Assembly: GCA_045586685.1 (NCBI GenBank)
Contig: JAZNAU010000020.1
Span: 1-64,000, forward strand
DNA from: Clostridia bacterium
GTDB lineage: Bacteria; Bacillota; Clostridia; HGM11514
Direction: 5' to 3'
DNA: 64,000 nucleotides
Shown: positions 1-12,058 of the stretch, in pieces
Layout: each line of letters opens with the position of its first letter
How positions within the stretch are numbered: the stretch's first letter is position 1
Program-made: the position numbers and the translations under genes
Notes under the pieces: model-generated
Databases searched by the model: none
Told to the model about the DNA's origin: nothing
Seen by the model: the letters and a program-made list of their open reading frames with translations, nothing else

Positions 1-16
1 CCTTCTTTCTACAGCA

Positions 17-199
17 TTCAGCATCATTCGACACAATTCCTACTCGTGTCAAGTCAGGAGAACAGTGAATATTAGGACCTACTATTTTTATCCAATTTTT
101 TCAACTGTTATTTCTGAACAAAATTCTTTAGAACCCGCGAGAATACTGGATTTTCTCGCTCCCGATGATATATGTAAATATAATAAATCGGCAAACTAT
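17..199 (-). repeat. Structured intergenic repeat, copy 1 (~183 bp)
   Basis: Shares TTCGACACAATTC..CGTGTCAAGTCAGG.GAACAGTGAATA.TAGGACCTACTA...AGAACCCGC...ATATGTAAATA...ATCGGCAAACTA with copies at 4572 and 6901. Confidence 0.92.
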
Positions 200-218
200 T
201 CTTTTAAATTGTATAGAC

Positions 219-247
219 TTGACACGAGGGTTTTTAGGCCATATAAT
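219..247 (+). promoter_or_regulatory. Consensus sigma-A promoter pointing antisense into the KilA-N gene
   Basis: TTGACA (219-224), 17 bp spacer, TATAAT (242-247). Confidence 0.6.
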
Positions 248-254
248 TGAAAAT

Positions 255-1055
255 TTATTTCAAATACTTATGTCCCTTGTCCTCTTGAAGAACAGACATT
301 TGGTGTATTGCTATCTGATTAAGTTTTGTCAATCTTTCGCTTTGAGGAACACCTTCGTTTATTAACATTGCGTTTATGTTTTCTAAATTAGATAAGCATA
401 TTAATTCATTCATACTTGCATAATCTCTTATATTTCCTTTTTTGTCAGGATTTTCGTTTCTCCACTCTTTTGCAGTTTTTCCAAACAATGCCATGTTTAA
501 GACATCAGCTTCATCAGCATATACTACAGAGATTTGCTTGGGCGTAAGTAGCTCCGGAATCAAATTGTTTTTAATCGCATCTGTATGTATTCTGTAGTTA
601 ATTTTTGCAAGTTCTCTTTTCGCAGACCAGCCGATTTGCTTTTGCTCATCATTTTTCAATCTTTGAAATTCTTTAACAATATATATTTTGAATTCTGGAC
701 TGATCCACATTGCAAACTCAAAAGCAATGTCCTTATGAGCATAGGTTCCGCCATATCTTCCAGCTTTCGCTGTTATTGATATTGCATTTGTCTTCTCTAC
801 AAATTCCTTAACACTTATTTTGAAACTATTTAACCCTGAACGACTTGTTAATTCTTTAAATTCATCGTAATTGAAATTAGGATTGTAAACCTTTTCCCAA
901 GTTCCTATATACTCTAAAGTATTTCTATTTCTCAACCAGTCTGTAACAAAAAAATCTCCATCTTTTGCCTTAAGCATATCCGTTATACAAATATAGTCTT
1001 CGGATTCTATCTGTGTAATTGTTATTTCCGTATCTTTTACAATTAACTTTTTCAT
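255..1055 (-). CDS. KilA-N domain DNA-binding protein
   Basis: 266 aa; DYICITDM..WLRNRNTLEYIGTWE..GRYGGTYAHKDIAFEFAMWISPEFK motifs typical of KilA-N proteins; GGAGG RBS. Confidence 0.88.
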   Translation of the reverse strand: MKKLIVKDTEITITQIESEDYICITDMLKAKDGDFFVTDWLRNRNTLEYIGTWEKVYNPNFNYDEFKELTSRSGLNSFKISVKEFVEKTNAISITAKAGRYGGTYAHKDIAFEFAMWISPEFKIYIVKEFQRLKNDEQKQIGWSAKRELAKINYRIHTDAIKNNLIPELLTPKQISVVYADEADVLNMALFGKTAKEWRNENPDKKGNIRDYASMNELICLSNLENINAMLINEGVPQSERLTKLNQIAIHQMSVLQEDKGHKYLK

Positions 1056-1072
1056 ATAGTATAACCTCCGAT

Positions 1073-1102
1073 TTTAATTATGGCGAATTCGCCATAATTA
1101 AA
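1073..1102. promoter_or_regulatory. Perfect 30-bp palindrome, candidate operator upstream of the KilA-N gene
   Basis: TTTAATTATGGCGAATTCGCCATAATTAAA is its own reverse complement; lies 18 bp upstream of the start codon. Confidence 0.65.
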
Positions 1103-1160
1103 TTGTTTCACATCATTTGTTTTAACAATCTTCAAAATATCTTTTATTAAGTTCTGCAAA

Positions 1161-1799
1161 CTAATTTATTAAATCTTTTTCATTATATTTTAACGCATTT
1201 CTTACCGTTTCTAAAGCTTCCAAAATGTGTTCTTTTGCATATTCGTCAGCAAATTTTTCTGAAGGATATTTTGAATAAATTTCTTCGTTGTATTTTTCTC
1301 CCAGAATTCTCTTCATAGGATCACAATCGTTCATTTCATATATTTTTTTAAGTAATTCTTTATGTGGTTGACGAATTTTTCTTTCCATCTCGCAATATTC
1401 ATATGATGTTTTTTTACTATTCTTAAAATATATCCAATGTCCATATTCATGCAACACACTATAAATTGCTAGTACCAAGGAATACTCTTTTATATAAACT
1501 CTTGTTATGTAGCTTATTTCATTCATACGACTTTCAATAGCCATAGGATTTCTATTTCTTTCAAGTTGCAAATATTCTTCAATGTCTACATCCGGGAAAT
1601 ACAATCCCAAATCTTCATTATTATACTTTTTCTTCTGATCATGTGTACCCTTAATTAATGCATTTTTTTCTTCAACTCCCATAATTTTGCATAGAACATA
1701 GTTCTCTTTATTCAATTCATTTCTATTTGTAAAATGCACAGGAGCATCTATATTTAAAATGTCTATAAGCTTTTTGAAATCAATAGAAATATTTAACAT
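1161..1799 (-). CDS. Hypothetical HEXXH protein (ImmA/IrrE-like metallopeptidase candidate)
   Basis: 212 aa; VLHEYGHW motif plus downstream PSEKFADEYA. Confidence 0.55.
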   Translation of the reverse strand: MLNISIDFKKLIDILNIDAPVHFTNRNELNKENYVLCKIMGVEEKNALIKGTHDQKKKYNNEDLGLYFPDVDIEEYLQLERNRNPMAIESRMNEISYITRVYIKEYSLVLAIYSVLHEYGHWIYFKNSKKTSYEYCEMERKIRQPHKELLKKIYEMNDCDPMKRILGEKYNEEIYSKYPSEKFADEYAKEHILEALETVRNALKYNEKDLIN

Positions 1800-1948
1800 T
1801 AGTTTATTTCTCCCTTTTGTTAGCTCTTTATAGATAAAAAGTTGTTTTGATTCAATTTTAATATATATAACAACACCTTCAAATTATATCAATTTCCAAT
1901 TTCGTTAATCCTTATTTATCCAAAACTTTTTCCATATAGCAGAAAAAA

Positions 1949-3658
1949 TCAATCAATTATTTCAATTCGCATTGACGGTCTCACACCTCTATCATCTGCA
2001 TCTACTGGGCATCCAAAATAATACTTATCATCTAATTGTCCGGATGCCCATACTTCACACGCTTCATCGGATTTAATATAATTACTATACTCACCTACTG
2101 GTTTACCGCCAGGTGTTCTTAACCACCACCAGCTACCTTTTCCTTCAGAATCATTTGCAACATCAGCAAATGGTGTGGCTAATATTTTTCTGTCTTTTTC
2201 TGTCGAGAAATATAATTTTACTTCATCGACTGAAAGCAAAAATAATCTATCTTCCGTGTCGTTTCCTGCCGTTGTTTTTTGTTCTTTATTATCTTTATTT
2301 TCTATCCTCGTCCACAAGATCTGTTCTTGCTCATCATCTGTAAATGCAGAATTAATAAACTCGTTATTTAACCATTCCCTAATAGATGAATCTTCCCATG
2401 TAATTGGTGCTTGTACATAGTGATATGGCTGAACATCTAATACATATTTACTTATAACAAACAATCTGTTTTCATCTCTTTCAAGCACTTGCCATTCAAC
2501 ATCTTCTTTCCCATTTGTAGCATTATTATCTTGTTCATATTTTCCAAATGTTATAAAGTCACCTGGTTGTGCAAGAATGGGATGTTCTTTTAAGATTTCA
2601 GTTATTTTACTTTGACTATCTTTATAATTAATAATTTCTTTATATGTTTCATATGCATCGCTATACTTTTCTTGCTCGTATAAATTTGTCGCTTTTTCGT
2701 ACTTTTGTTCTGGTACAACGACGCAATTAACAAATACTGCACCACTAATAACAATCAATAATATTGGTAACATAGCAATTGCAACCTTTTTATTTTTCTT
2801 TGCTTGTTTATCTGCTATTTTTTTCTCTTCAGCAGATTTAATATTTTCATTTTCTCTTTCTTCACAATATTTTTGATAAGTCTTACCAATGTTTTCTTCA
2901 GTAAATTCTAATGCAATCTCTTTTTTCATTGTGCATTGTATGCACTCGTCTCCGGCATTTACAAAGCCACAAGTACACTGCCAATAATTTTCTTTAAAAA
3001 TAGAATAATAATTTGATTGTAAATTATATTTTTTAGCACATTCAATATGTATAGACTCCAACAAATTTTGGTTTGTACTAACCCAATTTTCTTCAATAGT
3101 ATCTAATATTGTACCATCAGCAAAACAAACCTTTTTAACTTTGACTTCTACCTTACGTATAGCATCATCTTGCAATATAGCATAAATCTCTCCGTGTTCG
3201 TTAGGATTAATAGTTAAATCCTGACCTATCACATCAAAGAAATCAGAATCATTCACGTTAACTATATCACCAAACGAATTAAACCCTGTTGCAGAAATCA
3301 TTACCGCAGATATTGCTTTTGAAGATACATTAATAAAATCTACAAACAATACTAACTTTTCAGCATCTTTCTTTATTTCCCATGATGTAATATGGGCAGG
3401 TGAGGAAATATTAACTTGTTTGTTTAAGATTTCGCTTGAAAGTAATTCCATACTATCATTAGTCGGTGAAGAACTCTCGATTACAACTTTGGCTGTGTTA
3501 ACACTTTGTTTTGTTAATGCAACAATCAATGCGAATATACCAAAGAAAAATCCCCACCAAAACCAATTCTCTTCATAACCTTTATTCTCAATTACCTTGT
3601 TTACAACAACACCCCATATAATGCCACCGATTATTGTTCCAACTATAATATATCCCAT
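1949..3658 (-). CDS. Membrane protein with zinc-ribbon, TPR-like segment and C-terminal DUF6273-like domain
   Basis: 569 aa; N-terminal TM hairpin, WQCTCG..CIQC, TM helix, then FGKYEQD..VEWQVL..WEDSSIREWLN..WWWLRTPG..GVRP. Confidence 0.75.
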   Translation of the reverse strand: MGYIIVGTIIGGIIWGVVVNKVIENKGYEENWFWWGFFFGIFALIVALTKQSVNTAKVVIESSSPTNDSMELLSSEILNKQVNISSPAHITSWEIKKDAEKLVLFVDFINVSSKAISAVMISATGFNSFGDIVNVNDSDFFDVIGQDLTINPNEHGEIYAILQDDAIRKVEVKVKKVCFADGTILDTIEENWVSTNQNLLESIHIECAKKYNLQSNYYSIFKENYWQCTCGFVNAGDECIQCTMKKEIALEFTEENIGKTYQKYCEERENENIKSAEEKKIADKQAKKNKKVAIAMLPILLIVISGAVFVNCVVVPEQKYEKATNLYEQEKYSDAYETYKEIINYKDSQSKITEILKEHPILAQPGDFITFGKYEQDNNATNGKEDVEWQVLERDENRLFVISKYVLDVQPYHYVQAPITWEDSSIREWLNNEFINSAFTDDEQEQILWTRIENKDNKEQKTTAGNDTEDRLFLLSVDEVKLYFSTEKDRKILATPFADVANDSEGKGSWWWLRTPGGKPVGEYSNYIKSDEACEVWASGQLDDKYYFGCPVDADDRGVRPSMRIEIID

Positions 3659-3689
3659 ATCTCATACATCCTTTCATGTGTTAATTACT

Positions 3690-4542
3690 TTAATTCAAAA
3701 AATCTTTATTTATACTTCCTATTTCTTCTTTCAAGGATTTTTTCATTTCTTTAAACATCTTTTTCATATGTTTATTTAATTCATCGCCAACACTTTTGCA
3801 ATTGTATTTACTGAAATAATCCAACTGCTCAGAAAGAAACTTCGTAGTTTCTTCTACTAACTTATAACATTCCTGTTCCTCTTTTTGATCTATGAAATCT
3901 TCTCCCTCTATTGTAACAATGCTTTCAAACAACTTTGTATATACAAACAAAACTATTACGCGTACCAAAAATTCGTTAATCACATTATCGCAAGTATAAA
4001 GATCGTTTTGGTTTATATAGTAATATACCGTCGAAAAATTACAGTGAGCAAAATCACATAAAAATCCATATAAATCGTAAAAATAATTCTTATCTTTCCC
4101 TAGCTTCATGTCTGATGGGTTTCGTTGTATAAAATCTATGATTTCATTTTTATCTCTTGTTCTTGCATTTTTTTCCATCAAATATTACTTTTCTTTGAAA
4201 AATCATTTGCGGAATAAATATAAAATCATTTAGCAAAGAATCATCATATTCTTCATCAATATATCTGCTAGCTAAATATCCCTCAAACATAGTTCTTGAA
4301 AGAACAAAAACATCTTCAGTGTGACCAATATCCAATAGTTTCCTGATAGATTCGAGAGATTTAGTGCTTTTTGTAAAAACAAAATACTGAAAATCACTTA
4401 TAAAATTAGCATCAGGCATCTTACCTAAAACATAGTTGTATTTTCCATATTGAAAGCAACCATAGTCAATAAATTTTCTTGCCCTCAAAATATATCTATT
4501 TATTAATTTATCACACTTTTTAATCTCTTCTCGTTTATTCAT
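3690..4542 (-). pseudogene. Frameshifted DUF5677-like gene (two overlapping ORFs 4150-4542 and 3690-4181)
   Basis: Removing one base from the A7 run (T7 at 4168-4174) fuses the ORFs into ~283 aa; LSRTMFE and YGFLCDFAH motifs. Confidence 0.65.
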
Positions 4543-4571
4543 ACTGCAAATTTCTCCATTATTTTGTAGTT

Positions 4572-4723
4572 TTCAGCATCATTCGACACAATTCGAGTTC
4601 GTGTCAAGTCAGGTGAACAGTGAATAATAGGACCTACTATTTCACCCTAACATTTTTCATCAGAACCCGCAGGAATATTAGATTTCCCTGCCCGATATGT
4701 AAATAGATTTATCGGCAAACTAT
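4572..4723 (-). repeat. Structured intergenic repeat, copy 2 (~152 bp, shorter central segment)
   Basis: Direct alignment to 17-199 and 6901-7066. Confidence 0.92.
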
Positions 4724-4741
4724 GATATTAAATTTTAAAAC

Positions 4742-5596
4742 CTATTCTTCATCTTCTGCAATACTTTCAATCAAATCAACCACGACCTGATTTAGTTCAG
4801 CAGCATTTTTCGATGTAATTACTGGCTTGCCTGTATCTGCCTCAATTTCCTTTCGTGCATTACCAGCATACTTTCCGCCCCTTTTTGCAATTTCACGATT
4901 TTCTTCAAAAGTTTGCGGATTATGTGCTTTTGATAATTCTGTAGTTGTCGCTTCTGCAAGCATATTAAGTACTAGTTCAAGAGTGCTCATATTATCTCTT
5001 AAATTTTCTTTTGTAAGTCCTTTGAGGTTTTTATATTTTCTTGTTGTCATTCCTGACCAAGCTTTTGTGATTTCATCTGTTAGAATAGCATACTCTACAC
5101 CTTTTTGAACACCTCTTGCATCCCATTCATCTGTTAATTCTTTTCTTACCTTAATAGCTTGCAACCTTTGGTTTATCCACTCCCGTGTATAACCTTTTTT
5201 AAAATATGTTTCAAGTGCTCTTTCTATTGTAAGTTCAGGATCAATGGTTTCCTCAATTCTTTCTCTACCCACTTGTGCCAACCACAACTTAAAAGGTTCT
5301 GCTTTTGGAGAAGGAATTGACTGAATAATACGAAGTAGTTGCTCGGTGTCAGCTACATCTGTTTTGTAATATTTACCATCAGTATGTGATTTTAATTTCA
5401 GTTGACTACAATTTGTAGCCGACTCGTTTCCTTCTTTTTTTAGGCGAGTTTTAAGAACACTCCAATACTTTCTTGGATTTGGACTGTCCGTTAAAACACC
5501 AACTACATCAACAACAGAAAAATACCATTCTTCCACCTCTTCATTCCAAGCAGTTCTTATTCTTATATCTTCAAATATTTGTATTTTATCATCCAT
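4742..5596 (-). CDS. Bro-N domain (phage antirepressor-like) DNA-binding protein
   Basis: 284 aa; IRTAWNEEVEEWYFSVVDVV..YWSVLKTRL..RIIQSIPSPKAEPFKLWLA..ENLRDNM. Confidence 0.85.
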   Translation of the reverse strand: MDDKIQIFEDIRIRTAWNEEVEEWYFSVVDVVGVLTDSPNPRKYWSVLKTRLKKEGNESATNCSQLKLKSHTDGKYYKTDVADTEQLLRIIQSIPSPKAEPFKLWLAQVGRERIEETIDPELTIERALETYFKKGYTREWINQRLQAIKVRKELTDEWDARGVQKGVEYAILTDEITKAWSGMTTRKYKNLKGLTKENLRDNMSTLELVLNMLAEATTTELSKAHNPQTFEENREIAKRGGKYAGNARKEIEADTGKPVITSKNAAELNQVVVDLIESIAEDEE

Positions 5597-5668
5597 ATGT
5601 ATATCCCCCGTTTAGCTACTTTTTAACACTTTATCTGTATGAATATATCAAATTAAAGCCTAAAAATA

Positions 5669-6424
5669 TTATCCAACTATCTTTTCTATCATCGTTGCAT
5701 ATTTCTCGCCCAATTCTAACTCTATATCTACTTTCAATTCTCTTCTTACAGCTTTTTCTTCAGAATCTTTAATTGGATTATATCCTGTCTTTTCGATTTC
5801 ATCCCAATATATGCCTACCCCTCTTTTTTGCCAGGATGGTAATTTGTCAAAGTTAATTCCTCTTGAGAAAAGCAGTTCATTTTTATAAGATACAGACTTA
5901 CCCTCTAGAAGAGATGTAGCACTCTCTACACTTTCGCCTTCTTTTCTTAACATCCAATAGCAGTGTGCATTAAGTGCATTTCTATGTGCATCCTCTTGTC
6001 GCCACAGAAAATAATCCTTTACCAATTCAACATTTGGCAATGGTACCAATCTACAATCAAAAGCAACCGGTTGTCCTAACTCCAAGGAGAATGTTGCGCT
6101 TGCCATTCCAGCAAGAATAGAATTGTATTTACGAACTTTTCGGCCAAATGTATTCTCATTCCGATGAAACAGAAGGGAAATCTCATCACTCTCCGTATAA
6201 CCATAAATAATTCTGAATCCACAATCCATTAATCTCTTTACGGTTGCAATCATCATATTTCGAAATCTTTCATCAAACGGGGCTTCAAAATTACATGCTT
6301 CCTTAGTAAGTCGAGAAAAGTTTCTACCATCTAAACGAGCAACCAAATATAACTCGTTTAATACTGTTTGATCTATGGACTGCTCATATACTCGCATTTT
6401 TTTATCTAAATCATCAAATTTCAT
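5669..6424 (-). CDS. tRNA(His) guanylyltransferase Thg1-like protein (3'-5' polymerase)
   Basis: RLDGRNFS, YTESDEISL, FDCR and WRQEDAHRN motifs; start chosen at the ATG after a GGAG/AGGA RBS. Confidence 0.92.
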   Translation of the reverse strand: MKFDDLDKKMRVYEQSIDQTVLNELYLVARLDGRNFSRLTKEACNFEAPFDERFRNMMIATVKRLMDCGFRIIYGYTESDEISLLFHRNENTFGRKVRKYNSILAGMASATFSLELGQPVAFDCRLVPLPNVELVKDYFLWRQEDAHRNALNAHCYWMLRKEGESVESATSLLEGKSVSYKNELLFSRGINFDKLPSWQKRGVGIYWDEIEKTGYNPIKDSEEKAVRRELKVDIELELGEKYATMIEKIVG

Positions 6425-6428
6425 TTTC

Positions 6429-6875
6429 CTATCTCCAGTCTTCAACAATCATAATATTACCATCGTTTTTTACAAAGTAAAGTTCATCAAATCCCTCGTC
6501 GTATTCAGGGAGTTGAAGTTTGTTGGATGTAGCTGCAATTGCTTTTGCAGGGATACACGCTTTTCCCTCTCTTTTGTTATTTCGCTCGATACATTCCTTA
6601 ATCTTTGACTCCACAAAATAACCAACAATTCTGTAGCCTTCCTTTTTAGCTTGTATTATGTATTTCTTCCGTTCCTCTTTTGTTGGATTTGTGTTATCTA
6701 TTACAAAACTTTCTCTTGTTACAAAACATTCATTAATTGCCATTTGTTCTTGGTATCTTGTTTTTAACGTATCAAGATTAATCCTTTTATAATCTGCAAG
6801 AAAGTTTTGGCAAAAAGTGCTTTTTCCACTTCCTTGTATGCCAATCATTATTACAATTGTTTTTTTCACATACAC
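6429..6875 (-). CDS. AAA_33 / polynucleotide kinase-like P-loop protein
   Basis: GIQGSGKST Walker A, VIDNTN, ERNNKR and EGFD motifs. Confidence 0.85.
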   Translation of the reverse strand: MYVKKTIVIMIGIQGSGKSTFCQNFLADYKRINLDTLKTRYQEQMAINECFVTRESFVIDNTNPTKEERKKYIIQAKKEGYRIVGYFVESKIKECIERNNKREGKACIPAKAIAATSNKLQLPEYDEGFDELYFVKNDGNIMIVEDWR

Positions 6876-6900
6876 GCCACCTTTCGCAGTTATTCCACAA

Positions 6901-7066
6901 CATTCGACATAATTCGACTCGTGTCAAGTCAGGTGAACAGTGAATAATAGGACCTACTAAATTTTCCTTATTTTTTCAACTGTTTTTCTTTGAACAAAAT
7001 TCTTTAGAACCCGCAGGAATGTTATATTTTCCTGCCCAATATGTAAATATCAAAATCAGCAAACTA
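6901..7066 (-). repeat. Structured intergenic repeat, copy 3 (~166 bp)
   Basis: Direct alignment to copies 1 and 2. Confidence 0.92.
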
Positions 7067-7071
7067 ATGTA

Positions 7072-7896
7072 TTAAATTTTTCTAAGCACCCTACAATAGT
7101 ATGGTCTATCCTTAGGAGCTTCCTCGACAATTTCAAAAATACCATTGGCAATCATTTCATCTATTCTCCACGCCACAAAACTATCCGAAACACAAAGTTT
7201 ACACAAAGACTTACCTAGCAATTCCGCTTCTTTGAAAGTATCCGTCATCTTTTCTGACTCTACTTTAATAATAGAATCATAAAAATCCTCATGCACACTA
7301 ACTATTTCTCCCATAATAACTGTTCGCAATTGGGTATTTTCTTCTTTTGCTTTATGCCATTGCTTAATATGAGCTTCTTTATATGCTTTTGTTAATTTTC
7401 TTTGAGAAAACACCAATTGAGCAAGTTCTTCAGGATCAAACGCACCTGAACCAAAATATGTTTTATAATCTCCATTATTGAAAAGAATACTATTAGGCAA
7501 TTTTACATAAAAAATCTTTTCATTATCTATTCCCCAAGAATCCAACAAACAAAGCATCCAACAAAAAGCACATAATTCATCCGGATACTCACTATACCAT
7601 ATCCTAATTTCTTCACCAGATTTAGCAAGTTTTTCTAAACTCGATACAACTTTAATTGTTTTATCAAACCACTTTGCACGATATATAGTTTCACTTCCAC
7701 CTCCATACAAATTTGCGAATTCACTTCGTCTCTCCTTGCCAATTTCATCAAAGGATATACTACCCATACTCAAATTCATATATATTGAGTGTAGATTTGC
7801 CTTTAAATCTTGTATTTCGCTATTGTCCTGTTTCGCATAATAATCAGCCATTTTCAAACTTCCTGATAAAGAATCAGAAAAAGCAATATTTATCAT
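7072..7896 (-). CDS. DUF1835/DUF3658-like protein
   Basis: IAFSDSLSGSLK, LSMGSI, IRIWYS, EENTQLR, SVHEDFYD and SDSFVAWRI motifs; ATG at 7896 follows an AGGAG RBS. Confidence 0.75.
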   Translation of the reverse strand: MINIAFSDSLSGSLKMADYYAKQDNSEIQDLKANLHSIYMNLSMGSISFDEIGKERRSEFANLYGGGSETIYRAKWFDKTIKVVSSLEKLAKSGEEIRIWYSEYPDELCAFCWMLCLLDSWGIDNEKIFYVKLPNSILFNNGDYKTYFGSGAFDPEELAQLVFSQRKLTKAYKEAHIKQWHKAKEENTQLRTVIMGEIVSVHEDFYDSIIKVESEKMTDTFKEAELLGKSLCKLCVSDSFVAWRIDEMIANGIFEIVEEAPKDRPYYCRVLRKI

Positions 7897-7924
7897 AAGT
7901 ACACACTCCTCTTTTAACAATATT

Positions 7925-7960
7925 TTCGACACAATTCGACTTTTGTCAAGTCCGGTTGAA
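7925..7960 (-). repeat. Partial copy 4 of the intergenic repeat
   Basis: TTCGACACAATTCGAC.TTTGTCAAGTC.GG matches the gene-proximal end of copies 1-3. Confidence 0.8.
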
Positions 7961-7962
7961 AA

Positions 7963-8035
7963 TTTCAATGAATTAAATTATAAATTTCAATTCATGACGT
8001 AGGGCAATTCAATGAGTTTGCTTTGCAAACTTATT
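7963..8035. repeat. Degenerate ATGAATT/AATTCAT hairpin mosaic element
   Basis: TTTCAATGAATT, CAATTCATGAC and GGCAATTCAA words also occur in the element at 39655-39815. Confidence 0.5.
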
Positions 8036-8079
8036 ATAGAATCTTTGAACAATTCAGACGTCACATGCTTAGATATGAT

Positions 8080-8733
8080 TTAATCTTTATCATTTTCCAA
8101 TTCTATTTTAGGCAAACTCCAACAATATTTCGTTGCAAGCATTCGTATTGCCACTACCAAAAGCAGTGTGGAAACTGAAACCAATGAAATATTTTCAAAA
8201 TATTTTCTTAATATAAAATACAATAAACTACCTGAAATTGAAGCCAAAGCATAAATATGTTTTTTAAAGACATACGGTGTTGAATCTGTTAATATATCAC
8301 GAAAAATTCCACCGCCAATACCGGTTATCATTCCAATTGTAACAATAATAAATCCGTTATCCGAAAAACCGTGTATATACCCAACTTCAGCACCTGTTAC
8401 AGAAAACGCTGCTAATCCGATTGCATCAAAAAAATTATTAACATACTCAATTTTCATTCTAAAATAATTAAATTTTTGTCTGTTTATGTAAGCAATGATA
8501 AAAACAATTACCGATACAACCATTGCAATAAAACATATATTATAATTCAAAAAAATACTCGGAGGATTGATGCCTAACATAATATCTCTCACTATTCCTC
8601 CTCCAACCGCCGTAATGCAACCAACAAACACGACTCCAAATATATCAAGTTTTGCACCAATAGCAACCAATGCACCCGACACAGCAAAGGCTATTGTACC
8701 TATAATTTCCAATACTTTTATTATTTCTGTCAT
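8080..8733 (-). CDS. Trimeric intracellular cation channel / UPF0126 family membrane protein
   Basis: GTIAFAVSGA, TAVGGGIVRD, DAIGLAAF and GIGGGIFRD repeats. Confidence 0.9.
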   Translation of the reverse strand: MTEIIKVLEIIGTIAFAVSGALVAIGAKLDIFGVVFVGCITAVGGGIVRDIMLGINPPSIFLNYNICFIAMVVSVIVFIIAYINRQKFNYFRMKIEYVNNFFDAIGLAAFSVTGAEVGYIHGFSDNGFIIVTIGMITGIGGGIFRDILTDSTPYVFKKHIYALASISGSLLYFILRKYFENISLVSVSTLLLVVAIRMLATKYCWSLPKIELENDKD

Positions 8734-8931
8734 TTTAACTCACTCCAGATATATTTATTATAAATCGACTCAACAATGCAGATGTCATCTTCTTTGAATT
8801 CATTATAAAATCAGCAAACGACTTTAATTCCACTTATTTAAAGGCATTGTTTACTTAATTATAAGTATAGCACATATTATTAGAAATTTCAATTAAAAGG
8901 AACAAATTTCATCACTTTAACTATAACTTTT

Positions 8932-9095
8932 TTAAAAAGTTTCACTCCATCTTGTATGTGACAAACTTTCTGTATCAAGTTTCATTCTTGGTTACCTCCT
9001 TTGTTTTTGTGCGGTTGGCAAACCTACACTAATTCTATCACAGTTCTACTCATAGCGAAAAGCTTTTTTGAACGACGGGCATAGCCCGTGGTATT
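8932..9095 (-). mobile_element. Truncated IS200/IS605-family remnant (left end plus tnpA 5' stub)
   Basis: Hairpin ACGGGC-TAT-GCCCGT, then GGTTTGCCAACC, RBS AAGGAGGT and ORF MKLDTESLSHTRW (8985-8932) resembling the IS200 TnpA N-terminus, stopping after 17 aa. Confidence 0.72.
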
Positions 9096-9104
9096 TGTTT
9101 TACA

Positions 9105-9138
9105 AAAAACGACCAAAGCAAAAAGCTTTGGTCGTTTT
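9105..9138 (-). terminator. Intrinsic terminator after rplQ
   Basis: AAAACGACCAAAGC-loop-GCTTTGGTCGTTTT with U-tract. Confidence 0.85.
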
Positions 9139-9150
9139 AATTACCGAATA

Positions 9151-9495
9151 TTAGTCCACCAACTGCAGAACAGCCATGGGGGCTGCGTCTCCTCTGCGGG
9201 GACCCATTTTAACGATTCTGGTATATCCGCCGTTTCTTTCCGCATACTTAGGTGCGATTTCATCAAACAGCTTCTTTACCACGTCTTCTTTGGTAATGTA
9301 TGCCAGCGCCTGTCTTCTGGAATGCAATGTATTGGTTTTACCCAAAGTAATCATCTTTTCCACCATACTTCTGGCTTCCTTTGCTCTGGTTTCAGTGGTC
9401 ACGATCTGACCATTTTCCAGCACACAGGTAGTCAGAGATCTCAACATAGCACGACGCTGATCGGTAGGTCTGCCTAATTTTCTTGTTCCAGGCAT
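9151..9495 (-). CDS. rplQ: 50S ribosomal protein L17
   Basis: [18 protein letters not shown]. Confidence 0.98.
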
Positions 9496-9530
9496 TTCGA
9501 ATACCTCCTTTGTTCATGAATTTAGCCTTA

Positions 9531-10487
9531 TTACTGGTCCTCAGATTCAGACAGGGACAATCCCAAAGAAATCAGCTTGTTAATAACTTCTTCTAAGGAC
9601 TTTCTTCCCAGATTTCTGACCTTCATCATATCTTCCTCAGTTTTGCCAATCAAGTCTTCCACCGTGTTAATTCCTGCTCGCTTCAAGCAGTTGTAGGAAC
9701 GGACAGAGAAATCCAAATCTTCAATTTGCATTTCCAGTACCTTTTCCTTCTTGGTTTCTTCCTTTTCTACCATAATTTCATTGTTTCTGGCATCATCAGA
9801 AAGATCGATAAACAAATTCAGATGCTCATTCATAATCTTCGCACCAAGGCTGATAGCTTCATCCGGACGAATGGTTCCGTCTGTCCAAACGTCAACCACC
9901 AGCTTGTCGAAATCAGTATCCTGACCGACACGGGTGTTTTCCACGTTGTAATTAAACTTTACAACAGGCGTATAGATGGAGTCAACCGGAATAATTCCAA
10001 TTACATTGTTCCCCATTTCAGCCTTGTTTCTTTCCGCTGAAACATAGCCTCTGCCGTGATCCAGCGTGATTTCCATATATAGTTTTGCATCCTCATTCAA
10101 AGTAGCAATCAAAAGATCTTTACTTAAAATTTCAACATCTGAATCAGGTTTGATATCAGAAGCGTAAATTTCTCCTGCGCCTTTTGCTTCAATAAAAATG
10201 GTTTTCGGTCCGTCGCAATGAAGCTTGGCAATCAGTTTTTTGAGGTTTAATACAATCTCGGTAACGTCTTCTCTGACACCGGGAATGGTAGAAAATTCAT
10301 GCAAAACTCCGTCAATCTTAACAGAGGTTACCGCAACACCGGGGAGCGAGGACAGTAAAATTCTGCGCAGGCTGTTTCCCAGTGTCATTCCGTATCCCCG
10401 TTCCAAAGGTTCTACAATAAAACGGGCATAGGATGCGTTGTCCTTTTCTTCAATACACTCAATTCTTGGTTTTTCGATCTCAATCAC
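9531..10487 (-). CDS. rpoA: RNA polymerase alpha subunit
   Basis: [29 protein letters not shown]; GTG start chosen by RBS spacing. Confidence 0.98.
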
Positions 10488-10541
10488 TGACAAAACCCTC
10501 CTTCAATATTCAATTTTAAATATTCAAAAATTGAACTCTGA

Positions 10542-11168
10542 TTACTTGGAATAATACTCAACAATAAGATGTTCTTCCAACGGGAGGTCAATATCTTCTC
10601 TTGCTGCCAAGGTGACCACCTTAGCCTGCAAAGTATTACGATCCAGATCCAGCCACTTAGGAATCACTTTTCCTTCAGTCGCTTCCAAAACTGCCTTAAT
10701 CTTGGTCTTGCTGCGGCTACCTTCCTTAACAGCAATTACATCCCCTGGAGAAACCAGGTAGGAAGGAATATCAACCTTCTTGCCGTTTACAGTAAAGTGA
10801 CCATGTCTAACCAACTGTCTTGCTTCAGGACGAGACATTCCAAATCCCAGTCTGTAAGCAACGTTGTCCAATCTGCTTTCCAAGATTGCCAGCAGGTTTT
10901 CACCTGTGATTCCGGCTCTTTTTTCAGCCATTACAAAATACTTTTCGAACTGGCCTTCCAAAACGCCGTAATATCTTCTTGCTTTTTGTTTTTCTCTTAA
11001 CTGAATTCCGTATTCAGAAACCTTTTTTCTGCTCTGGCCGTGCTGACCGGGCGCATAAGGTCTTCTGTCAACGGCGCATTTTCCAGTATAACAACGGTCG
11101 CCCTTCAGAAAAAGCTTCTGGCCTTCTCTGCGGCAAAGTCTGCATACCGCTTCGGTATAACGTGCCAT
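10542..11168 (-). CDS. rpsD: 30S ribosomal protein S4
   Basis: [18 protein letters not shown]. Confidence 0.98.
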
Positions 11169-11213
11169 ATCTGCACCTCCATTAATTAATAGTAATCCCG
11201 TATTGCCAACAAA

Positions 11214-11609
11214 TCAAACTCTGCGACGTTTGGGGGGTCTGCATCCGTTATGAGGAATGGGAGTTACGTCTTTAATCATTGTAACTTCTAAGCCTGCTCC
11301 CTGCAATGCTCTGATTGCAGCCTCTCTTCCGGCGCCGGGTCCTTTTACATATACTTCAACCATTTTCAGACCATGCTCCATAGCCGCTTTTGCAGCGGTT
11401 TCTGCAGCAGTTTGAGCAGCAAAGGGAGTGTTCTTTCTAGAACCGCGAAAGCCCATTCCGCCTGCGCTCGCCCACGAAATCGCATTACCTGCAACATCGG
11501 TAATGGTAACAATGGTATTGTTGAACGAAGAACGGATATGAACCGCACCGCGTTCGATATTTTTACGCTCGCGTCTTCTGCGTGTTGTTTTTTTCACTGT
11601 TTTAGCCAT
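11214..11609 (-). CDS. rpsK: 30S ribosomal protein S11
   Basis: [24 protein letters not shown]. Confidence 0.98.
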
Positions 11610-11627
11610 GGTATCGAACCTCCTTCT

Positions 11628-11996
11628 TTACTTTTTCTTACCTGCCATAGTCTTTTTAGGACCTTTTCTGGTACGTGCGTTATTCTTGGTGTTCTGTCCT
11701 CTTACGGGCAGTCCACGTCTGTGTCTTAAGCCACGATAGCATCCGATTTCCATCAAACGCTTAATGTCCAGAGAAACCTGACGGCGCAAGTCACCTTCTA
11801 CCGTGTAATCCTTATCGATTGCATCACGCAGCAAACCAATCTGTTCTTCTGTCAGATCCTTTACTCTTGTATCCGGATTGATTCCGGTTTGTTCAAGAAT
11901 TTTTCTGGAGCTGCTAACGCCGATACCGAAAATATAAGTCAAGCCGTATTCTACGCGCTTTTCCTTGGGTAAATCAACACCTGCAATTCTTGCCAT
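11628..11996 (-). CDS. rpsM: 30S ribosomal protein S13
   Basis: [17 protein letters not shown]. Confidence 0.98.
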
Positions 11997-12058
11997 TTAC
12001 TGTTTACACCTCCTGCATTTTCTATGCACTTCATTTTTGTGTATTTCATTATGAATAA

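Follow-up and report, generated by a model that had tools for sequence, protein, structure and literature searches.

In T4-type phages, cassettes of open reading frames (ORFs) are shuffled by recombination between promoter-stem-loop motifs known as PeSLs, according to the available part of the source (PMC2839356). A comparable arrangement on a bacterial chromosome is described here. The stretch analysed (the window, W) comprises the first 64 kb (64,000 nucleotides) of contig JAZNAU010000020.1 (C20) of a Clostridia bacterium (assembly GCA_045586685.1, source genome G000), and the element in question is a repeat of about 190 nt that recurs between accessory genes in its first 8 kb. As far as the accessible PeSL literature goes, the best-supported reading is that this element is the bacterial-chromosome counterpart of the phage PeSLs (PMC2839356). 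Both are short conserved motifs with a stem-loop and a sigma-70-like promoter (a predicted one in the Clostridia element), lying in one orientation between small, variable and mostly unknown ORFs (PMC2839356; PMC4122927, both available in part). In both, the places where relatives differ by insertion, deletion or replacement coincide with the motifs; PeSL shuffling, in the accessible accounts, needs no dedicated recombinase, and the Clostridia element may need none either. There are also differences. In the same accounts PeSLs span a few tens of nt, whereas the Clostridia element has about 190 nt, terminal inverted repeats and an invariant 25-mer. It is chromosomal, is common to different families, has 0 matches in IMG/VR or a phage collection, and its stem-loop, H1, is not followed by a T-run. 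Mini-circles that form by recombination between motifs are a further mark of PeSL-type cassettes.

Integrons and CALINs (clusters of attC sites lacking integron-integrases) offer a second comparison, drawn from a partly available survey (PMC4889954). Like these, the Clostridia arrays are co-oriented and mostly single-ORF, with cargo of diverse function and an element close after each ORF; their cassettes are common to unrelated genomes, and a single strand can fold through the inverted ends. Unlike them, they lack IntI, attI and RYYYAAC/GTTRRRY cores; the element is conserved in sequence and not in structure only, has its own promoter-like sites, forms several small arrays per genome, and its junctions appear to fall at more than one point. 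In the accessible part of that survey, complete integrons are not found in Firmicutes (PMC4889954). The pdif (Xer) modules of Acinetobacter plasmids are similar in being bounded by inverted short sites, in having sites in common between adjacent modules, which move about among replicons, and in relying on a recombinase encoded elsewhere, again as far as the accessible source describes them (PMC6449649). They differ in having 28-bp XerC/XerD sites in that description, whereas the element described here is chromosomal, belongs to Clostridia and has inverted repeats of 14-19 bp with a 3-nt centre. Compared by eye with dif sequences, it shows a partial half-site resemblance only, and no dif similarity is established.

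Pneumococcal BOX, Neisseria Correia/CREE, ERIC and Bacillus bcr1 elements are modular, intergenic repeats of 100-200 nt with inverted ends that can pair in RNA. Such elements may carry promoters and are co-transcribed with their neighbours; their copy number is high, they lie in either orientation, and several of them duplicate their target. Compared with them, the Clostridia element is low-copy, strictly co-oriented with genes and arrayed, and it marks cassette borders.

Repeat Copies and Cassette Arrays

The source genome comprises 1.55 Mb in 56 contigs, and contig C20 begins at window base 1. Relatives of G000 are labelled G001 and so on, and loci L001 and so on. The window holds three full copies of the repeat, of about 190-220 nt, a lone right-end module and a weak remnant, all on the minus strand, which is also the gene strand. 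They were recovered by repeat finding, alignment and pattern searches, with 0 matches in 100 shuffled controls. An nhmmer search with a 102-copy profile placed full copies on the minus strand at 13-235 (E 7e-65), 6887-7102 (E 5e-57) and 4566-4743 (E 1e-44), a partial copy at 7914-7956 (E 0.007) and the weak remnant at 1152-1176 (E 0.72). The remnant is backed by homology to L107 and L055. The first profile had bounded copy 3 at 6877-7082. The copies in the source genome are as follows.

13-235, minus strand: full copy 1, type A; runs to the contig end, the next gene being unassembled
Inner parts of copy 1: left inverted repeat CTCGTGTCAAGTC at 216-228; hairpin H1 at 137-159; invariant 25-mer at 60-84; right inverted repeat GACTTGACACGAGT at 42-55
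1152-1176, minus strand: weak remnant of the 5' box of the repeat (ATTAGTTTGC...), between the HEXXH and KilA-N genes
4566-4743, minus strand: full copy 2, type B, with a short spacer and no left inverted repeat; right inverted repeat at 4597-4610
6877-7085, minus strand: full copy 3, type B, without a left inverted repeat
7914-7956, minus strand: lone right-end module (CCGGACTTGACAAAAGTCGAATTGTGTCGAA), with TTGACA-16-GAAAAT at 7922-7949, 18 nt before a start codon
Contig C11 17168-18960 of G000 (L001 3165-4991): cassette with a single MatE gene between two diverged repeat copies

The two copies around this MatE-type transporter gene are the only further full copies in G000, so that the genome holds five, at two loci, all co-oriented with genes. 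An empty site for the C11 cassette was sought among relatives G001-G005, and no clean one was found because these have in common only two genes on one side. As the window begins at a contig end, the array is truncated at the left. No other G000 contig overlaps the start of C20; by synteny with G002 and G003, the end of contig C42 is likely the far side of the array, the join being unassembled. The AT-rich small contigs C10, C26, C52, C56 and C7 were considered as parts of the array and rejected, since they carry polysaccharide and housekeeping genes instead. A suspected degenerate copy upstream of the Gly-transporter gene (about 8783-8830) received no support from the profile search.

These results agree with the initial annotation in its central observation, namely a repeat always in the same orientation between genes. 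The sites it had given were right; their bounds were slightly narrow, and the left inverted repeat of copy 1 (216-228) had been missed. The close spacing it had described also holds: the repeat begins 0-20 nt past a stop codon and ends about 12-30 nt before the next start, and at copy 3 the stop codon of the preceding gene falls within AATTTAA, the first conserved box of the repeat. It had placed the beginning of the array right after the rplQ terminator, where in fact a remnant resembling an insertion sequence (IS) and a Gly_transporter gene intervene; that the array leaves the window at the left edge is correct, since the contig ends there.

For a wider view, loci were gathered with the invariant 25-mer as bait (exact 24-mer scan). 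ORFs were called mechanically as the longest non-overlapping ones of 60 to 80 aa or more, without curation; the duplicate loci L062, L069, L074, L079 and L111 were excluded from the orientation, interval and lone-motif counts. Within each of 80 loci, all copies lie on one strand. The upstream ORF (80 aa or more) of the 104 full copies is co-oriented in 87 cases and opposed in one, being absent at the locus edge in 16, and the median gap from stop codon to element is 34 nt; downstream, 87 ORFs are co-oriented and eight opposed. The 60 intervals between copies have a median of about 1.1 kb and mostly hold a single ORF, with 103 of their 106 ORFs co-oriented. The picture of co-oriented accessory-gene arrays split by one conserved element, originally drawn from the window, is thus borne out by these two ratios, 103/106 and 87:1.

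The cargo is diverse. After two of 89 cluster representatives were dropped as small antisense ORFs (L078:5288-5467 and L108:962-1321), 87 distinct cargo proteins match 74 Pfam families, among them transporters, enzymes, surface proteins, RhuM, Bro-N, KilA-N and DUFs. Bro-N is the commonest family and was found in 11 of the examined loci. Close Bro-N homologues occur in 7/12 repeat-positive relatives vs 3/49 repeat-negative ones; Bro-N was considered as the element's own protein and rejected, the association being confounded because Bro-N is itself a cassette. Lone right modules (CCTGACTTGACACGAGTAAGAATTTTGTCGAATGATGCTGAA) head arrays upstream, 7-27 nt past a host gene or, in L025, after a 5S ribosomal RNA (rRNA) gene.

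Exchange of Cassettes Between Genomes

Single cassettes are swapped between distant genomes at the elements. The KilA-N block of the window (44-1174) is 92.8% identical to L107 1005-2135, the homology stopping at the TTGACAC core, and the Bro-N gene of the window is 83.6% identical to that of L078, whereas the rplQ-rpoA regions of the L107 and L078 genomes are 68-69% identical to the window. Other cassette pairs reach 97-99% identity (L030/L093, L055/L107, L032/L033 and L103/L129). Overall, cassettes are 84-99% identical where rplQ-rpoA is only 67-74% identical.

The gene content of relatives changes at the same places. Four same-genus genomes retain rplQ and diverge just beyond its terminator, and none of them has the array there. 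In the genus pair G013/G054, a 763-aa gene is homologous together with its own promoter, starting 15 nt to the right of the repeat, and the upstream gene together with the repeat is missing from the locus of the other genome. Such breaks coinciding with the element, at the same-genus rplQ loci, in G013/G054 and in the pairs of loci, agree with the gene-capture reading of the initial annotation, as does the sharing of cassettes by distant genomes.

The idea of one precise recombination point is not supported. Homology blocks end mostly at profile positions 163-180 (the TTGACAC core, in the right inverted repeat), some at the outer left edge and some just past H1; L030 and L093, for example, are identical through TTGACA and unrelated beyond it. 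Linkage switches inside the variable spacer and not at one base. The comparison, of four and three pairs only, suggests that each half may travel with the gene next to it, the left with the upstream one and the right with the downstream one.

Anatomy of the Element

The anatomy was derived from the gene-strand consensus of 102 distinct copies. From 5' to 3', the left inverted repeat, (TTTT)ACTCGTGTCAAGTC, comes first, then a box of conserved sequence, AATTTAAAAGATTAGTTTGCCGAT..ATATTTACATAT, the 7-bp hairpin H1, the motif GGGTTCT, an indel-rich and A-rich spacer, the invariant 25-mer TAGTAGGTCCTATTATTCACTGTTC and the right inverted repeat CCTGACTTGACACGAGT, which holds TTGACA; in many copies GTCGAAT..GAA and a ribosome-binding site follow. 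The inverted ends are ACTCGTGTCAAGTC ... GACTTGACACGAGT. Terminal inverted repeats of 14-19 bp are present in about 70% of copies, and the remaining 30% or so lack the left one and keep the rest of the element; strict matching of both cores gives an inverted repeat of 12-19 bp in 40/101 copies, and between the two ends about 80% of the alignment cells form pairs. Sequence is 75-97% conserved over most of the element's length, and the 25-mer with the right inverted repeat keeps 84-97% pairwise identity even among random copies. The 5' part occurs in three types, of which type C has a perfect TTGCAA-17-TATAAT. Half elements also occur alone before genes.

H1 is the only helix retained by RNAalifold. 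It pairs in 99.3% of cells (102 copies); two pairs switch between GC and AU (63/33 and 64/35), and a few G-U variants occur on the gene strand. Because the switches divide the copies into two sequence types, they may reflect few events. A full copy folds better than its shuffles (RNA z -2.72, DNA z -3.42), with a 13-bp closing stem in the DNA single strand. As only one helix is supported, the element is not a complex RNA. A known RNA family was rejected, the element having no Rfam match: the Rfam search gave 0 matches at E<=1 in window 1-12000 and, on four copy-bearing loci, only 5S rRNA and one chance match. Antisense ORFs within the repeat (16 of at least 60 aa) were rejected as coding, since indel lengths do not follow multiples of three and no codon position of the 25-mer varies.

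Several copies carry additional sequences. A structured insert of about 70 nt interrupts the repeat at a single position, flanked by AGTAGGTCC and TATTATTCAC, in L023 (12195-12464), L025 (8488-8760), L028 (10090-10335) and L029 (9897-10231, two tandem copies), and also in L052, L061, L064, L077, L081, L089, L115, L117, L120 and L122. Its long hairpin keeps its pairing across differing sequences, its ends mimic the target (GGTTC|TTATTA), and Rfam has no match for it; it resembles a further mini-element, nested in the first, that inserts site-specifically. A GC-rich palindrome of 20 nt, GGGGCGATTCACGAATCGCCC, stands within the A-rich spacer in L127 (4166-4437), L060 (6496-6757) and L105 (1089-1357). 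Another repeat family (GCCTTCCCCTTGAGGGGAAGG..., with an inverted partner about 200 nt on) often lies just to the right of the element, as in L026 (1190-1600), L027 (10860-11110), L030 (9470-9690) and L063. In at least 10 copies (e.g., L071 6051-6300, L094, L070, L086 and L105) the motif ..TTGCATCTAAACC.. replaces the GTCGAAT module after the right inverted repeat and may be an alternative downstream promoter.

Promoter-Like Sites

The element holds two sigma-70-like sites. P1 (TTGCCG/TTGCAA, in the conserved box) is followed by a -10-like hexamer in 61/91 copies, and P2, with the TTGACA of the right inverted repeat as its -35, in 34/88. In the window, P2 is predicted at 23-52, 4578-4607 (TTGACA-18-AATGAT) and 7922-7949, and P1 at 165-194. 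Lone left halves (ending at H1) and lone right modules lie directly upstream of genes, and of the lone GACTTGACAC motifs beyond the repeats 44 point with genes and 12 against. The cassettes had been described as promoterless; this does not fit a repeat with sigma-70-like sites, nor the downstream gene that keeps its own promoter. In window 1-9600, the gene strand yielded no terminator-like site.

On the plus strand, a perfect TTGACA-17-TATAAT lies at 219-247, antisense; the left inverted repeat of copy 1 supplies its -35, and it is directed into the KilA-N gene. The homologous cassette of L107 retains the site (TATAAA). That the left inverted repeat is an antisense promoter in general was rejected, since only 14/51 copies have a -10-like site. 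Resemblances to sigma-H, TcdR and dif sites, seen by eye against consensus sequences, were dropped.

Distribution

BLAST found the repeat in 12/61 related genomes (G000 included) at 75-87% identity. The pattern is patchy over several families of the class, and within the genus 3/6 other genomes have it. In contigs of one genome per species, the exact 24-mer occurs in at least 120 stretches; among the matches listed, all are metagenome-assembled genomes (MAGs) of Clostridia, labelled Congzhengia, Ructibacterium, Oscillospiraceae, Eubacteriales or 'Clostridia bacterium', many of them from ruminant gut. A search of sequencing runs found no RNA run containing the locus and none with more than 0.18 of its sequence words. 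In four of these runs, metagenome contigs of other organisms show the repeat and the Bro-N gene to be abundant in gut and faecal samples, with repeats joined in other combinations. Five further genomes have 3, 11, 4, 6 and 6 BLAST matches at several separate places (some being pieces of one copy); as there are several loci per genome, the single gene-capture platform envisaged at the outset is set aside. Copy 1 had no blastn match in the PLSDB plasmids or the INPHARED phage collection, and the exact 24-mer had 0 matches in IMG/VR. No description of the element was found in the literature searched, which covered few subscription journals.

Recombinases near the Element

The initial annotation had reported neither attC ends nor an integrase, and indeed no RYYYAAC/GTTRRRY cores were found and no integrase lies on contig C20. 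In G000, tyrosine recombinases (PF00589) are found only on C38, C10, C13 (a fragment) and C6 (a fragment), with none on C20 or near the C11 copies, and phmmer with two tyrosine recombinase queries had no match among 848 ORFs around copies in 88 loci. With five G000 recombinases as queries, only two weak matches came up in this set, to genes of the large serine type in L030 and L093. Genes of this type (Resolvase + Recombinase + Zn_ribbon_recom) form the largest real cluster among the 848 ORFs and lie beside copies in six independent loci, as follows.

L030 4024-9220
L119 2868-7412
L118 4708-7912
L093 2762-4541
L028 1494-2747
L100 6892-7410

The copies beside them are mostly of type C. In L030, host core genes for a P-type ATPase and Lon lie on the other side of the copy, which therefore stands at the border between element and host. 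No large serine recombinase was found in G000 at E<=1e-20; such genes occur in 29/61 relatives, with no match to the 12 repeat carriers. The adjacency of serine recombinases and the repeat is a lead, not a link.

Interpretation

The explanation that we tentatively favour, plausible if a little short of probable, is that the repeat is a promoter-bearing intergenic module that also provides portable homology for cassette exchange, much as phage PeSLs do. The element would supply expression signals to the gene downstream. P1 and P2 would fire, with H1 at the predicted transcript start, where it may stabilise the 5' end of the mRNA; the TTGACA of the right inverted repeat could serve as the P2 -35, and a short leader would then bring the ribosome-binding site. 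After DNA transfer, general (RecA-type) recombination would add, remove and swap single accessory genes, so that exchange would proceed by homologous recombination and not by a dedicated enzyme. Since the element is nearly identical wherever it is found, it could act as portable homology, and the invariant block of 25-mer and right inverted repeat would be a natural crossover substrate.

Several observations weigh against this explanation. The -10 hexamer is missing from P1 in 30/91 copies and from P2 in 54/88, and a promoter scan of the window region gave 59 sites vs 47.8 +/- 7.2 in shuffles of this AT-rich DNA, which is barely above. Several homology blocks end very sharply (e.g., L030/L093 after TTGACA), as a site-specific crossover would also give. 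Large serine recombinases, one to three in tandem, stand directly upstream of a copy and co-oriented with it in 6/88 loci. Full copies are over-represented, because the invariant 25-mer served as bait. A role in regulation and homology also leaves unexplained the terminal inverted repeats, each a near-palindrome (ACTYG-N3-CRAGT), the invariance of the 25-mer at every base across families, and the insertion of about 70 nt at a fixed point inside the element. As these palindromic ends, the 25-mer and the fixed insert find no explanation, a dedicated site-specific system stays in play as a minority view.

Such a system would be true gene capture: the element, its inverted-repeat 13-mers or the invariant near-palindrome would be the site at which a recombinase acting in trans, perhaps one of the large serine type, excises and inserts cassettes, in a functional analogue of the integron for a phylum in which integrons are lacking. 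We regard this as unlikely. The co-oriented and mostly single-ORF cassettes with their very diverse cargo, the lone right modules at array starts beside host DNA (5S rRNA in L025, a host gene in the window), the sharp junctions at the TTGACA core, the absence of target duplication and the single strand that folds with a 13-bp closing stem (DNA z -3.42) are all in its favour. So are the co-oriented serine recombinases immediately upstream of copies in L030, L093, L118, L119, L028 and L100, the same recombinase-repeat end being joined to two different sequences right after TTGACA, and the lack of complete integrons from Firmicutes genomes in the accessible part of the survey cited above (PMC4889954). 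Against it stand the genomic data: C20 and the surroundings of the C11 copies are free of recombinases, G000 has no large serine recombinase at the threshold used, and the presence of such genes in relatives is uncorrelated with the repeat. Blocks end at three or more places and linkage decays over the spacer, there are several loci per genome, and the sequence is conserved besides the structure, unlike attC. Known crossover sites span 6-8 bp for tyrosine recombinases and 2 bp for serine recombinases. The inverted repeats with their 3-nt centre are unlike these sites. An integron proper was rejected on the absence of IntI by the copies and of attC cores, on the conserved sequence and on the several loci per genome. 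A novel Firmicutes cassette system, with 13-mer-bounded cassettes moved by a trans-acting recombinase for which the tandem serine recombinases would be candidates, is put forward as a doubtful but distinct option, and the earlier gene-capture reading as a whole is partly supported.

The remaining explanations treat the arrays as secondary. A non-autonomous transposon like a MITE (miniature inverted-repeat transposable element), with its transposase elsewhere and its outward promoters incidental, would produce arrays through a preference for inserting at gene ends in variable regions. A length of about 190 bp, terminal inverted repeats of 14-19 bp in about 70% of copies, several copies per genome, a patchy occurrence with 75-87% identity between families, and other small elements nested inside would suit it, as would the whole repeat as the unit of difference, with a break at the outer edge of the left repeat (L032/L033 and the W/L107 block). 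The initial annotation had named random orientation with target duplications as the sign of an ordinary MITE; instead, the G000 copies at two loci are co-oriented, and 40 copies have no target duplication, the flanking direct repeat being 0 nt (17), 1 nt (9), 2 nt (13) or 3 nt (1). With the strict orientation (87:1 relative to genes, and no copy between divergent genes) and the low copy number (five full copies in G000; 3-11 BLAST matches, partial and split ones counted, in five others), this led us to reject an ordinary MITE. About 30% of copies have no left inverted repeat yet keep the rest, and no transposase with matching ends was found among the 848 neighbouring ORFs, which were searched with recombinase queries only; a MITE-like origin is thus improbable. 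It is quite improbable that the element is only a cis-regulatory region or small RNA gene, a shared operator that recurs through co-regulation and local duplication and has no role in gene movement. The near-palindromic invariant 25-mer, the palindromic 13-mers at both ends, the hairpin with compensatory changes, the promoter-like sites and the DNA-binding Bro-N and KilA-N proteins among the frequent cargo (Bro-N 7/12 vs 3/49) agree with that idea, but 74 Pfam families of cargo have no common pathway, cassettes with their flanking repeat parts are far more alike from genome to genome than core genes are, synteny is broken where the element lies, and Rfam has no match. Finally, inverted repeats around a promoter are the general layout of an inverton, and here repeats of 14 bp lie about 165 bp apart around P1. 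A promoter flipped by a recombinase is nonetheless highly improbable: the inner segment has one orientation relative to the flanking genes in all 104 full copies, about 30% of copies lack one inverted repeat, and none of the 15 joints listed (of 30) changes strand.

Genes of the Window Array

The first 8 kb of the window have a GC content of 31.7% vs 41.0% genome-wide, in keeping with the first impression of foreign-looking accessory genes. The genes of the array and its right flank are given below.

255-1055, minus strand: KilA-N cassette gene (Pfam)
1161-1799, minus strand: 212-aa ORF with a HEYGH motif seen in the sequence, no Pfam family
1949-3658, minus strand: DUF6273 protein, 569 aa (Pfam)
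3690-4542, minus strand: DUF5677-like gene in two overlapping ORFs, 4150-4542 and 3690-4181 (Pfam)
4742-5596, minus strand: Bro-N cassette gene (Pfam)
5669-6424, minus strand: Thg1-like nucleotidyltransferase, Thg1 + Thg1C (Pfam)
6429-6875, minus strand: AAA_33 / zeta-toxin-like P-loop kinase (Pfam)
7072-7896, minus strand: DUF1835 + DUF3658 cassette gene (Pfam)
8080-8733, minus strand: Gly_transporter (UPF0126) gene, between the array and rplQ (Pfam)
8946-9109, minus strand: IS-like remnant, repeated also in relatives G001 and G005, outside the repeat family
9151-9495, minus strand: rplQ, the last conserved gene

Pfam agrees with the gene assignments made from the sequence at the outset (DUF1835, AAA_33 kinase, Thg1, Bro-N, DUF5677, DUF6273 and KilA-N), the HEYGH gene having no Pfam match. 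The split of the DUF5677-like gene sits at an A-run near 4168, where one metagenome contig has one base fewer; it could be a frameshift, an assembly error or slippage. The AAA_33 kinase and the Thg1-like 3'-5' nucleotidyltransferase form a two-gene unit (5669-6875, minus strand) with overlapping stop and start, and the pair may be RNA-end repair cargo. Homologues of the Gly_transporter gene are located within repeat arrays of L080 and L102. The remnant at 8946-9109 (minus strand), a 17-codon ORF with its upstream region, presumably resembles the start of an IS200-type element.

Significance

The element family and its cassette arrays appear to be undescribed in the sources searched. Little is known of the ways in which uncultured gut Clostridia with small genomes obtain and express individual accessory genes, and here one element borders horizontally exchanged one-gene cassettes across many species of ruminant and faecal microbiomes. 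For these MAG lineages the element is a ready marker of the variable gene pool and a likely cause of contig breaks, and it is a candidate for a portable expression module in organisms that lack genetic tools. Should a dedicated recombinase take part, the arrays would represent a new kind of gene-capture system, integron-like but built on different enzymes and sites.

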